Notes: generated from the sequence alone by a model not told the origin. A stretch of 64,000 nucleotides of DNA from Promethearchaeota archaeon (GCA_048937405.1 JBHLNF010000012.1:22002-86001); one strand, 5' to 3'; shown: positions 13,158 through 57,827, counted from the stretch's first letter. Numbers and translations: made by a program.

Positions 13158-13260
13158 GCGCTCTTAGTATAGTGGTCAGTATGCCAGGTTGCCAATTCTC
13201 TGGTTCTAATAGACTTGAGAGGTGAACCTGGCGACCCGGGTTCAATTCCCGGAGGGCGCA
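13158..13260 (+). tRNA. tRNA-Gly(GCC) with a 31-nt intron in the anticodon loop
   Basis: Acceptor GCGCTCT/AGGGCGC-A; anticodon stem CCAGG/CCTGG, loop TT-GCC-AA; T-arm CCGGG TTCAATT CCCGG; intron about 13196-13226. Confidence 0.95.
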
Positions 13261-18603: not shown

Positions 18604-18630
18604 ATCAATCTTATTTCGTTTATTTTTTAG

Positions 18631-18720
18631 TGGGCCCGGCGCGATTTGAACGCACGACCTTCCGCACGTCAAGCGGACGTCATTTCGGGGGTGACCCATA
18701 CCGAGCTAGACCACGGGCCC
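18631..18720 (-). tRNA. tRNA-Val(GAC) with a 16-nt D-loop intron (position 21/22)
   Basis: Acceptor GGGCCCG/CGGGCCC-A; anticodon arm TCCGC TT-GAC-GT GCGGA; T-loop TTCAAAT; intron TGGGTCACCCCCGAAA (18683-18698) inside a BHB motif. Confidence 0.95.
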
Positions 18721-21027: not shown

Positions 21028-21174
21028 TTTCTGTTAAAATATCAATTTTTTTTACTCATCAATAATTTATAAAAAAAATTGAAAAAATCCCTTTATTTGA
21101 TTTAGAAACATAAGTATAAAATTATTTAAAGATTCGAATTTAAATTTTCTGTAGTTAAAAAAAAATTAAAAAAT

Positions 21175-54927: not shown

Positions 54928-55200
54928 TTGAAAACATACTTAAAAATAAAAAAGCAAAAAATCTTTGAATCATTCAAGACAGAATCTTTATTTCAATCTG
55001 ATCTTGTTATTTTGAGTTTATATATTATTTATTGTATTTTTCTTTTAGCTCAGTTTATACGATATTGCATGTATATTTGGAGTGGATTTACAGAAAGTAA
55101 TTTTCACTTAGTTTTAGGGTGGATAATGTTTTTTATCTTTATAGGATATATATGTATCTTTTCAATTTTAGCAATAAATACATTTTTTATTAAAAATTGA
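54928..55200 (+). CDS. Small two-TM membrane protein
   Basis: 90 aa, TTG start, two hydrophobic segments. Confidence 0.5.
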   Translation: MKTYLKIKKQKIFESFKTESLFQSDLVILSLYIIYCIFLLAQFIRYCMYIWSGFTESNFHLVLGWIMFFIFIGYICIFSILAINTFFIKN

Positions 55201-55234
55201 TTTTCATTCAAACTTCTAATTATAGGGTGCCAAT

Positions 55235-55250
55235 AAAAAAGGTTTTAAAG
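55235..55250 (+). promoter_or_regulatory. Putative BRE/TATA promoter of the leader-cimA transcript
   Basis: Purine run AAAAAAGG followed by TTTTAAAG (55243-55250), ending 25 nt before the leader ATG. Confidence 0.6.
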
Positions 55251-55275
55251 TATCTATTATTTTTAGAATCTAATT

Positions 55276-55347
55276 ATGAAATTAAAATTAAAACCAATAA
55301 TAGGTATTATTGCTATCTTCATTATTATTATTGGGATTATTATTTAA
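55276..55347 (+). CDS. Putative isoleucine-rich leader peptide of cimA (MKLKLKPIIGIIAIFIIIIGIII)
   Basis: ATG 55276 to TAA 55345-55347; 12 of 23 codons are Ile (9 ATT, 2 ATA, 1 ATC); 105 nt upstream of cimA on the same strand. Confidence 0.75.
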   Translation: MKLKLKPIIGIIAIFIIIIGIII

Positions 55348-55356
55348 TTTCAATAA

Positions 55357-55415
55357 AGAAATTTTAAACCCTTTTAACCTTTCTTTTGTTTGCCTTTTCT
55401 CGGTTTAAAATTTCT
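55357..55415 (+). terminator. Putative attenuator: 14-bp perfect stem enclosing a 31-nt U/C-rich tract
   Basis: AGAAATTTTAAACC (55357-55370) / GGTTTAAAATTTCT (55402-55415); loop CTTTTAACCTTTCTTTTGTTTGCCTTTTCTC. Confidence 0.6.
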
Positions 55416-55452
55416 CCTGAATATCAAAAAACTATAAAAATTAAAAAAATCA

Positions 55453-57066
55453 TTGGTGAAAAAAGCATTGGTCAATAATAATAGCGTGTCTATATATGAT
55501 TCAACCCTTCGAGAGGGAAGTCAAAAAACTGGAATTAGCTTTTCAGTTGATGATAAAATCAGAATTCTAGAACGGTTAATAAAGGATCTTAATATTGCGA
55601 TGATTGAAGTTGGGTGGCCAGGGTCCAATCCAAAAGATATTTTGCTATTTGATAAGATCAAAACGATGGATATAGATTTAAATGGGACTAAGATTTATGC
55701 TTTTGGTAGTACCAGACGTAAAGATATAAAAGCTGAAGATGACAGTAATTTAAAAGCTTTTTTAGAAGTTGGTATAAAGCATGCTACAATTTTCGGGAAG
55801 AGTTGGGATTTACATGTTGAATCTGCTTTAGAAACTAGTTTAGAGGAAAACCTTAATATGATAGAAGATACAATCACTTTTTTGAAGAAAAACGGGATTG
55901 ACGTGATATATGATGCAGAGCATTTCTTCGATGGATATAAAAATAATAAACAATACGCTTTGGAAACGATTTTACGTGCAAGAAATGCGGGGGCATCATG
56001 GATTGTTCTATGTGATACAAATGGTGGGCTTTTGTTAAATGAATTAGGTCCAATTTTAGAAGATGTTAAAAATTTCTTAGGGGATGATATTGCTTTAGGA
56101 ATTCATCCCCATAATGATTGTGGTTTGGCAAATGCTCTTGCTTTAACAGCTTTTCACCATGGAGTCAGAATGATACAAGGAACAATGAACGGTTTTGGTG
56201 AAAGATGTGGTAATACGGATTTAACAACAATATTGCCTGTTTTGAAATTAAAAATGGGAATTGATTGTATTTCGGATGAAAAATTGGAAAATATCACTGA
56301 AGTTTCACATTTTATTTACGAAATGGCAAATTTGGTTGCATATAACGATCAACCTTTTGTAGGAAGAAATGCATTTTCACATAAAGGAGGTGTTCATATT
56401 TCTGCTATGCGTAAAAATGTAAGAACATATGAACATATAAATCCTGAACTAGTAGGAAATTCTCGAAATATAAAGATTTCTGAATTAGCAGGTAAGAGTT
56501 CGATATTGCATATGGCAAAGAAATTTGGAATACCTTTAGCAGAAGACAATCCTAAAGTTGCTGAAATCTTAAACGTTATTAAAGAAAAAGAGAAAGATGG
56601 ATATGCTTATGATGGTGCAGATGCTTCTTTAGAAATTATTATGAGGAGTATGGATATGAATATTCAAGACCCAGATTATTATACAAAAAAGTTTTTCGAA
56701 TTAGAAGGATTTCGAGTATTAACTGAATTATATAATGATAATTTAACATCTGAAGCAACTATCAAAGTAAAAGTTAAAGGTCAAGAATTTCATACTGCAG
56801 CCGAAGGAAACGGACCGGTAAATGCATTAGATAACGCTCTTAAAAAAGCCTTACTTCACTTTTATCCTAGTATTAATGAAATAAATCTTACTGATTTTAA
56901 AGTAAGAATAATAAATAAAGCAGGTACCGCTTCCAAGGTAAGAGTATTAGTTGAAACTAATGATAATAAAAACTCCTGGGGTACGATTGGAACACATGAG
57001 AATATTATCGTAGCATCATGGAAAGCACTCGTTGATTCCTACATCTTTAAATTATTGAAGAAATAA
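55453..57066 (+). CDS. cimA: Citramalate synthase (isoleucine biosynthesis)
   Basis: YDSTLREGSQ, IFGKSWDLHV, YDAEHFFDG, LCDTNGG, HPHND, GERCGN; LeuA-type regulatory domain GNGPVNALD. Confidence 0.92.
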   Translation: MVKKALVNNNSVSIYDSTLREGSQKTGISFSVDDKIRILERLIKDLNIAMIEVGWPGSNPKDILLFDKIKTMDIDLNGTKIYAFGSTRRKDIKAEDDSNLKAFLEVGIKHATIFGKSWDLHVESALETSLEENLNMIEDTITFLKKNGIDVIYDAEHFFDGYKNNKQYALETILRARNAGASWIVLCDTNGGLLLNELGPILEDVKNFLGDDIALGIHPHNDCGLANALALTAFHHGVRMIQGTMNGFGERCGNTDLTTILPVLKLKMGIDCISDEKLENITEVSHFIYEMANLVAYNDQPFVGRNAFSHKGGVHISAMRKNVRTYEHINPELVGNSRNIKISELAGKSSILHMAKKFGIPLAEDNPKVAEILNVIKEKEKDGYAYDGADASLEIIMRSMDMNIQDPDYYTKKFFELEGFRVLTELYNDNLTSEATIKVKVKGQEFHTAAEGNGPVNALDNALKKALLHFYPSINEINLTDFKVRIINKAGTASKVRVLVETNDNKNSWGTIGTHENIIVASWKALVDSYIFKLLKK

Positions 57067-57098: not shown

Positions 57099-57827
57099 TT
57101 AAAGTTCTTTTTTCTCTAAATATTTCAAGATTTTAGCATAAATATCTTTTTCAGCATCTTTTTTATTATTGAAATTGTCTGATTTTAGAGTTCTTGAAAT
57201 TTTTACGAGCTCTTTCTGATTTTGTTCATCAATAATCCTAGGATTCTTCGCTTTCCAGATTGGATCATGTTCAACTCCACTTTTTTCATAATCAAGTTTA
57301 ACAATAGGAGTTATTTTGTATTTTTCCTGTAAAAATTCTAATAATGAATTCTTACTGGAAATTTTCGATTTTTGCTTGATGTAATCCAAATTCTTGATGA
57401 AGGGATCAATCATTTTTTGTTCTACTAAATCTAAATTCCCCTCAGAATCAAGAAATAAAGCACCACAAACAGCTTCAATAACATCAGCTAATATCTTCGT
57501 ATCTTTAACCTGTTGTTTTTCAGCTTTAAATATAAATTCATGCAAATTAATTTTTTTAGCAATTTCTTTTAAGGCTTTATCACTTTCCAAACCTGCTTTA
57601 AGTTTAGTTATTTCACCAGGCTTTTTTATACCCTTATGATATAGTTTTAAAATAAAAATTACTTTAATTATAGCATCTCCAAGAGTTTCTAAAAATTCAT
57701 AGTGAGGTTTTCCAGTTTCATTACCTAACTGCGGAGTAGTAAGGGCTTCTAACAAGAGTTCTTTTTTCTTAAACTCATATTTTATAAGCGTCTGGAACTC
57801 CTTTAGTCTATCGTTTTTAACGTTCAA
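57099..57827 (-). CDS. rnc: Ribonuclease III with dsRBD-like C-terminus
   Basis: EFLETLGD (variant of ERLEFLGD), ADVIEA, KNSLLEFLQ...NKKDAEK. Confidence 0.88.
   Translation of the reverse strand: MNVKNDRLKEFQTLIKYEFKKKELLLEALTTPQLGNETGKPHYEFLETLGDAIIKVIFILKLYHKGIKKPGEITKLKAGLESDKALKEIAKKINLHEFIFKAEKQQVKDTKILADVIEAVCGALFLDSEGNLDLVEQKMIDPFIKNLDYIKQKSKISSKNSLLEFLQEKYKITPIVKLDYEKSGVEHDPIWKAKNPRIIDEQNQKELVKISRTLKSDNFNNKKDAEKDIYAKILKYLEKKEL

Follow-up and report, generated by a model that had tools for sequence, protein, structure and literature searches.

What does a short reading frame made up in large part of isoleucine codons, followed by a perfect RNA hairpin, do in front of a gene for isoleucine synthesis in an archaeon? 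The question is raised by a locus in the window, that is, the whole 64,000-nucleotide stretch analysed here, which comes from a genome of 4.47 Mb in 29 contigs with 29% G+C (G000). The overall best explanation, which we hold with slightly better than even confidence, is that a ribosome-mediated isoleucine attenuator controls cimA in a family of Promethearchaeota (Asgard archaea). The parts of this explanation differ in strength. From comparison of the homologous loci, the element is very probably an isoleucine-responsive leader-peptide control element; that its output is premature termination we would put a little above an even chance; and that the hairpin specifically gates the exposure of a U tract is a tentative proposal, which we rate somewhat below even.

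The controlled gene can be named with assurance. cimA occupies 55468–57066 (+), with TTG 55468 as its probable start and the frame open from TTG 55453, and its product scores 677 bits against the citramalate synthase model TIGR00977 (cut-off 450), so that an earlier sequence-only reading was right to call the upstream region a cimA leader. This enzyme is the first of the citramalate route to isoleucine. The closest named relatives of this cimA are in 'Promethearchaeota archaeon' MAGs, from which the host is taken to be an Asgard archaeon of the Loki type. Immediately upstream, an A-rich spacer (55416–55459, +) ends in a Shine-Dalgarno-like GGTGA (55455–55459), and the homologs carry SD-like purine motifs 5–9 nt upstream of the cimA start codon. 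The gene is monocistronic, with a convergent downstream neighbour in most loci; here the convergent gene is an RNase III homolog (57099–57827, −; TIGR02191, 101 bits, below the cut-off). cimA is found in 41 of the 153 genomes of the order, but of the 53 other genomes of the genus no more than 2 have it. Gene and leader together are present in most of the family's other genera, with varying flanking genes, and promoter, leader and cimA seem to have been gained and lost together as a unit. That the leader arrived by horizontal transfer together with a bacterial cimA was considered and rejected, as an Ile-rich small ORF (sORF) was found upstream of none of 77 bacterial and other homologs.

A promoter-like element lies at 55234–55250 (+) and consists of an A-rich stretch followed by a TATA-like box (TTTTAAAG) that begins 33 nt before the leader ATG. 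Of 26 homologous loci, at least 20 show the same arrangement, an A-rich run with a TTTAAA-type box 29–34 nt before the ATG, and in none of the 26 does a Shine-Dalgarno sequence precede the leader ATG. Since archaeal TATA boxes lie about 26–27 nt from the start site, this spacing suggests that the cimA mRNA is leaderless or nearly so, with transcription probably starting at or near the leader AUG. The leader ORF itself (MKLKLKPIIGIIAIFIIIIGIII; 55276–55347, +) has 23 codons before its TAA stop (55345–55347), and 12 of them encode Ile (9 ATT, 2 ATA and 1 ATC), the highest Ile density among the 43,296 ATG-started small ORFs of the genome.

This frame is a property of the family. An sORF of the form M-K-x-K-I-I-P...I-I-G-I-I-stop stands 103–130 nt upstream of cimA in 25 of the 27 family loci with upstream DNA (27 genomes, about 10 genera), and the ATG and TAA are in frame in 24 of 26 relatives, with ORF lengths of 17–24 codons. 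In the variable middle of the leaders, frame 0 has 54% Ile and no stop, compared with 0–5% Ile and 30 and 12 stops in the other two frames. Over all leader residues Ile makes up 52%, against 10.8% in the proteome, and other hydrophobic residues are depleted (Leu 4% vs 9.9%; Phe below 1% vs 5.4%). By these comparative measures, the leader ORF is shown to be translated and specific for Ile.

A frame with a basic N-terminus and then 17 hydrophobic residues might instead encode a tiny hydrophobic membrane peptide, an independent gene unlinked to cimA, with its own promoter and with the U-rich region, inverted repeat included, as its terminator. The U-rich tract could indeed terminate a short transcript, and the A-rich spacer contains TATA-like strings. 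We nevertheless regard such a gene as very improbable. Unlike those of the proteome, the hydrophobic residues pooled over the leaders are nearly all Ile (239, with 19 Leu, 14 Val and 4 Phe); directly upstream of cimA is the only place where the element was found in the family, the genome of the window has a single copy, and the element accompanies cimA despite differing flanking genes; Leu and Trp counterparts stand upstream of leuA, trpD and trpB2; and the Pro and Gly of the peptide are accounted for by an invariant RNA pair, to which we now turn.

The RNA pairings that had been claimed for this leader were all recovered as described, including the two G-U pairs in one of them. Segment 55294–55302 (CCAATAATA) is the exact reverse complement of 55326–55334 and gives 9 bp, worth −5.1 kcal/mol by itself; 55328–55339 pairs with 55345–55356 over 12 bp, two of them G·U (−7.9 kcal/mol); and 55357–55370 (AGAAATTTTAAACC) forms with 55402–55415 (GGTTTAAAATTTCT) a perfect 14-bp inverted repeat, here called P2, whose arms are 31 nt apart (−11.6 kcal/mol). 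The 9-bp and 12-bp pairings are mutually exclusive, as had been stated, because they have bases in common. In the minimum-free-energy structure the 9-bp pairing sits within a longer helix, P0/P1 (−17.3 kcal/mol), whose 5΄ strand (55277–55302) covers the start-codon region and the Pro-Ile-Ile codons and whose 3΄ strand (55326–55352) covers the last Ile and Gly codons, the stop and UUUCA. The alternative local hairpin (55328–55356; −7.9 to −8.7 kcal/mol) excludes P0/P1, and its 3΄ end abuts P2. All these features are on the + strand. The folding energy of 55260–55460 has a z-score of −2.2, and perfect spaced inverted repeats of at least 13 nt within 60 nt number two in the 64-kb window, P2 among them; the other is at 21042–21082 (TCAATTTTTTTTA/TAAAAAAAATTGA, 15 nt between the arms).

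Conservation was followed in two alignments, A3 with 26 sequences and the model-fitted A5 with 29 matches, 27 of them distinct. P0, which pairs AUGAA with the post-stop UUCAU, is present in 26 of 26 sequences with 98.5% of cells paired; P1 (AAUAAUUCC with GGAAUUAUU) has 95.7% paired, the 10-bp core of P2 96.5–97% (26–27 sequences) and the 6 bp of outer P2 69%, and in 3΄-slid controls pairing falls to 36–60%. The CC of the Pro codon pairs with the GG of the Gly codon in 26 of 26, and this invariant RNA pair explains why Pro and Gly are conserved in the leader peptide. Where only one side of a P2 core pair has changed, the result is nearly always U·G, and A-U to C-G exchanges occur at two pairs of the core. 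Both-sided pair changes number 7, against 3.1–3.2 in shuffles, a value reached by 0 and 2 of 500 shuffles. The covariation is modest because the sequences are related and highly conserved, and we take it as moderate, not overwhelming, support for the helices. A covariance model matches all 27 loci with upstream DNA, one of them cut by a contig end, and has a single match in the genome of the window. A metagenome scan with the pattern TTCAT-N3-5-GAAATTTTAAAC, which is too AT-rich, returned 80 chance loci and no model match.

The three pairings thus fare differently across the family. The 14-bp stem stands as an RNA element, conserved upstream of cimA in 27 genomes with G·U and compensatory changes. 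The 9-bp pairing belongs to the conserved P0/P1 helix, but its exact register is lineage-specific and only its CC:GG core is universal. The 12-bp alternative, offered as a competitor of the 9-bp pairing, is strong only in this lineage: 80% of its cells pair across the family, with no covariation, most relatives lack its two central pairs, its loop is down to 2 nt in short leaders, and we rejected it as a conserved 2:3 helix for lack of covariation. Two leaders depart from the usual spacing of stop codon and stem: in L108 (G057) the leader stop is lost and the frame continues across P2 and ends 2 nt short of the cimA start, and in L103 (G060) the stop lies three codons further downstream, on the P2 left arm. 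A DNA operator for a dimeric regulator, for instance of the Lrp type, was also considered and is disfavoured. One-sided A to G changes occur opposite U, T to C changes are accompanied by a change of the partner, and read on the opposite strand the G·U pairs become C·A; this asymmetry favours an RNA element of the + strand over a DNA operator.

Could the pairings be a functionless by-product of ATT repeats in AT-rich DNA? In a 29% G+C genome AUU and AAU strings pair by composition and T4 runs are common, being present in 73% of the 60-nt stretches that follow long ORFs; alone they are undistinctive, and we rejected T runs as a signal in themselves. The suspicion, already voiced in the sequence-only reading, that the AU-rich pairings may partly be such by-products is favoured by the lack of covariation in the 12-bp pairing and in the exact 9-bp register. 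The P2 loop (55371–55401, +) has 27 pyrimidines in 31 nt, with three U4 and two U3 runs, and 31-nt windows that match it in pyrimidine content and T4 runs are 0.046% of those in the genome. A chance origin for the whole is hardly credible to us: inverted repeats of this kind are rare (two in 64 kb), as is the loop composition, the spacing is fixed in 27 genomes of about 10 genera, and substitutions obey G·U and compensatory rules. Conservation already largely refutes this reading.

Leaders for the same and other amino acids are found in related and in the same genomes. In a sister family the Ile leader is another, unrelated-looking one of 35–37 codons that ends in IIC-stop, followed 6–8 nt after the stop by stems of differing sequence (CUCUUUGC/GCAAAGGG, CUCCUUGUC/GACAAGGA and CUCUUUGCC/GGUGAAGGG), which enclose loops with U5 (two U5 runs) and have no trailing U-run. 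This leader is carried by G042, which we take to be a cultured relative. In the genome of the window a Leu-run sORF ending in LLSLLLLLLL-stop (G000:C7:562232-562333, −; locus L121/L253) stands 87 nt upstream of leuA (NF002085, 563 bits). Such a sORF (LLLLL-stop) precedes leuA in 27 of 29 family loci, and all 29 have a hairpin of about 50 nt within the first 70 nt after the sORF, starting 0–3 nt past the stop; the stems differ widely between genera, many enclose a pyrimidine tract, and none has a trailing U-run. Trp-rich sORFs precede trpD (MANEKIIPFRWHWFWRA; G000:C11:2400-2453, −; L122) and a TrpB2-like gene, trpB2 (MATVRNFCWQWPWRWR; G000:C7:23743-23793, −; L123), each with its stop codon in the loop of a GC-rich hairpin, and the trpD leader and the cimA leader have the start AAAAUAAUUCC (K-I-I-P) in common. 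Taken together, the Ile, Leu and Trp leaders leave amino-acid sensing through leader translation as the only economical reading, and a design with a stem beside the stop codon and a U/C tract inside it recurs among them. A further sORF, of 33 mostly ATG and ACG codons (Met/Thr run), lies 153 nt before the CTP synthase gene pyrG (G000:C2:16422-16523, +; L124); a simple repeat is one possible reading of it, a leader that senses a nucleotide or an amino acid another.

If the leader senses isoleucine, what does the signal act on? P2 begins 10 nt and the U tract 24 nt past the leader stop. No terminator-like site of the bacterial intrinsic type was predicted in 55150–55550; only 2 of the pairs in P2 are G-C and its loop spans 31 nt, and because CCTGAAT (CCUGAAU in the RNA) follows the right arm directly, there is no T-run after P2 in the window. 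At gathering score, an Rfam scan of the window found only a tRNA, and the best score in 55200–55500 was 21.5 bits, as against 41.2. Two tRNAs of the window are seen by one program each: one of 103 nt, probably with an intron (13158–13260, +), is found by Rfam and missed by ARAGORN, and a 91-nt tRNA-Arg(CCG) (18630–18720, −) is found by ARAGORN and absent from the Rfam gathering-score list.

The loop can be compared with archaeal termination signals. U-tract termination in archaea calls for at least one tract of U4 or more, with efficacy rising with the number of tracts, and the termination sites of Term-seq studies have no preceding hairpin (PMC8716108). The factor aCPSF1 binds U tracts, with higher affinity where there are more U4 tracts (PMC8716108), and FttA has been proposed to police transcription-translation coupling in a Rho-like manner (PMC11616081). 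Both the tract and the factor fit here: three U4 runs lie within 31 nt, and aCPSF1/FttA is encoded in the genome (TIGR03675, 883 bits, cut-off 580; G000:C16:29825-31705). We therefore treat the P2 loop as a candidate archaeal U-tract terminator or aCPSF1 site. Of 26 relatives, 20 have a loop with a pyrimidine share of at least 72% and 17 have one with two or more T4+ runs, but in one genus (L108, L112, L116 and L117) P2 is kept around a loop with one T4 run or none. The enclosure of a U tract by a stem, to which the sequence-only reading had drawn attention, recurs in the sister-family Ile leader and in the Leu leader and is weaker in that genus.

The relatives also bear on a bacterial style of attenuation, in which P2 would be the terminator hairpin (3:4) and the stop-proximal pairings the antiterminator: a ribosome at the stop codon would block the antiterminator, be it the local hairpin or an A-tract:AUUUCU helix, P2 would form, and transcription would stop just after it. 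The order of the parts is the classical one, 1:2 (P0/P1), stop codon, 3:4 (P2), and in 7 of 26 relatives a T-run (T4–T8) follows P2 directly, preceded by an A-tract. That P2 is unlike a bacterial terminator is accordingly true of the window, where none is predicted, and less so of those seven. The window and 18 other relatives have no such T-run, the hairpin-free sites of Term-seq (PMC8716108) speak against a hairpin terminator in archaea, and the Leu and sister-family Ile hairpins have no trailing U-run and abut the stop codon, so that a terminating ribosome would block them.

Folding under ribosome constraints adds to this comparison. As long as the right arm has yet to be synthesised, a mid-loop AUUUCU copy pairs in most sequences with the A-tract and left arm, and a ribosome on the stop codon prevents this pairing, as an antiterminator of the bacterial kind would require. 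The decoy helix is a perfect 10–12 bp in several genera, with its G:C positions shifted, yet it beats composition-matched shuffles in 8 of 26 sequences only, the window not among them, and as a universal antiterminator it was rejected for this reason. On balance we consider bacterial-style attenuation unlikely.

The same calculations limit the gating that we favour. It had been suggested that a ribosome at the stop codon would cover the start of the left arm and that its position could thereby decide whether the U tract is available for archaeal-type termination or cleavage. With the stop codon in the A site, the ribosome should reach only to about 55357, the first base of the P2 left arm; it would sit over the 3΄ strand of P0 and the alternative hairpin and only abut P2. 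In thermodynamic constraint folding P2 forms at every ribosome position. Both results weaken that suggestion, and any switch must be kinetic. Moreover, the right arm is synthesised after the U tract, which leaves P2 powerless over instant intrinsic termination in the loop, and the gating model therefore requires delayed or factor-dependent termination.

A stem that forms irrespective of the ribosome is also what a fixed processing or stability module would look like, and stalling might alter the fate of the mRNA rather than its transcription, through burial of the 5΄ end by P0, protection from a 5΄–3΄ exonuclease, cleavage by an endonuclease at P2 or a change in access to the ribosome-binding site (RBS) of cimA. 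P0 pairs the 5΄-terminal AUG with the post-stop UUCAU in 26 of 26 sequences, which would bury the 5΄ end and block re-initiation, and the lack of loop U tracts in one genus suits a post-transcriptional role as well. Its parts fare less well. The mean unpaired probability of the cimA RBS over 26 sequences is 0.49 with the RNA free, 0.48 with a stalled ribosome and 0.50 with one that has reached the stop codon. The SD is placed outside the helix, 40 nt downstream of P2. SD sequestration, that is, translational attenuation of the erm/cat type, was discarded on these grounds. The neighbouring RNase III, considered as the P2 cutter, was likewise dropped, its adjacency to cimA being confined to this genome and its closest relative (G087), and a nuclease site cannot be named. 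A post-transcriptional output seems to us quite improbable.

For the attenuator that we prefer, we infer the transcription start, the stalling, the direction of the switch and the termination output, and we propose the following order of events. Transcription would begin at or a few bases from the leader AUG, giving a leaderless mRNA, and a ribosome would read the frame of about 20 codons, half of them for Ile. Left untranslated, the frame would fold on itself as P0/P1, the start codon pairing with the post-stop UUCA(U) and the Pro CC with the Gly GG, and P2, from 10 nt past the stop, would close around the pyrimidine- and U-rich tract. When charged tRNA-Ile is plentiful, the ribosome would follow the polymerase to the stop codon and keep the P0 3΄ strand, the A-tract and the alternative hairpin from pairing during the polymerase's passage over the U/C tract, which would then lie naked, and termination would occur there by the archaeal U-tract/aCPSF1 route. 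When tRNA-Ile is scarce, the ribosome would stall upstream on the Ile codons and the stop-proximal strand would fold, into the local hairpin here and into an A-tract:U-tract helix in other genera; P2 would then shut over the tract, and the polymerase would proceed into cimA.

If stalling did no more than uncouple ribosome and polymerase, starvation should raise termination and not lower it, which speaks against this gating model. The genus whose loops have at most one T4 run (L108/L112/L116/L117) and the 7 of 26 relatives with a T-run after P2 also count against it. In its most general form, a hairpin-gated U-tract attenuator acting through aCPSF1/FttA or intrinsic release and serving Ile (in two families), Leu and Trp genes, the proposal is rather doubtful, and we put it forward as a possibility only.

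The nearest known systems are the branched-chain leader-peptide attenuators of bacteria, namely the enterobacterial leaders ilvL (of ilvGMEDA), ivbL (of ilvBN) and leuL and that of ilvBNC in C. glutamicum (PMC11857589), which likewise place a translated ORF rich in cognate codons before a committed enzyme. As in attenuators of the ilvL/leuL type, a self-folding leader (1:2) precedes a second helix (3:4), the stop codon stands beside the contested strand, and the genome has matching leaders for further amino acids. Unlike them, the cimA leader belongs to an archaeal host with a eukaryote-like RNA polymerase, has no GC-rich hairpin followed by a U-run, keeps its U/pyrimidine tract inside the hairpin, is probably part of a leaderless mRNA and matches no Rfam leader family; its candidates for an antiterminator (2:3) are weak and not conserved.

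In Rho-dependent attenuators, such as tnaC-tnaA and the mgtA/corA leaders, a leader-peptide ribosome or an RNA structure gates the access of a factor. There too a pyrimidine-rich, unstructured loading region lies 3΄ of a short ORF, although archaea, to our knowledge, have no Rho. In tnaC the stalled ribosome itself masks the site, whereas the cimA tract lies 24 nt past the stop, and masking would need folding.

Leaderless leader peptides are known from Deinococcus deserti, upstream of amino-acid biosynthesis and tRNA synthetase genes, and have, as proposed here, the start codon at the very 5΄ end of the transcript (PMC4007540). That organism is a bacterium with mapped start sites (PMC4007540), and the start in the cimA leader is deduced from TATA-box spacing. 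The archaeal U-tract/aCPSF1 terminators are similar in having several U4 tracts within about 30 nt and in needing no upstream hairpin, but those described are gene-end or intra-operon terminators, for none of which gating by a leader peptide or a surrounding conserved stem is described (PMC8716108; PMC11616081).

In our search of the literature we found no paper describing leader-peptide attenuation in archaea. In bacteria, this form of attenuation is the textbook proof that the coupling of transcription and translation serves regulation, and Asgard archaea are the closest known prokaryotic relatives of eukaryotes. Conservation of the element among them implies that functional coupling serves gene control in this lineage. 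If our proposal is true, this would be translation-coupled attenuation built on eukaryote-like termination machinery, with an output module unlike that of bacteria, and thus a natural substrate on which to ask how termination by the archaeal polymerase and aCPSF1/FttA is regulated; the sister-family leader in a probably cultured relative (G042) makes the idea testable. In its outline the cimA leader looks like the bacterial gauges in which a ribosome reads the supply of an amino acid, with the U-rich tract placed inside the hairpin.
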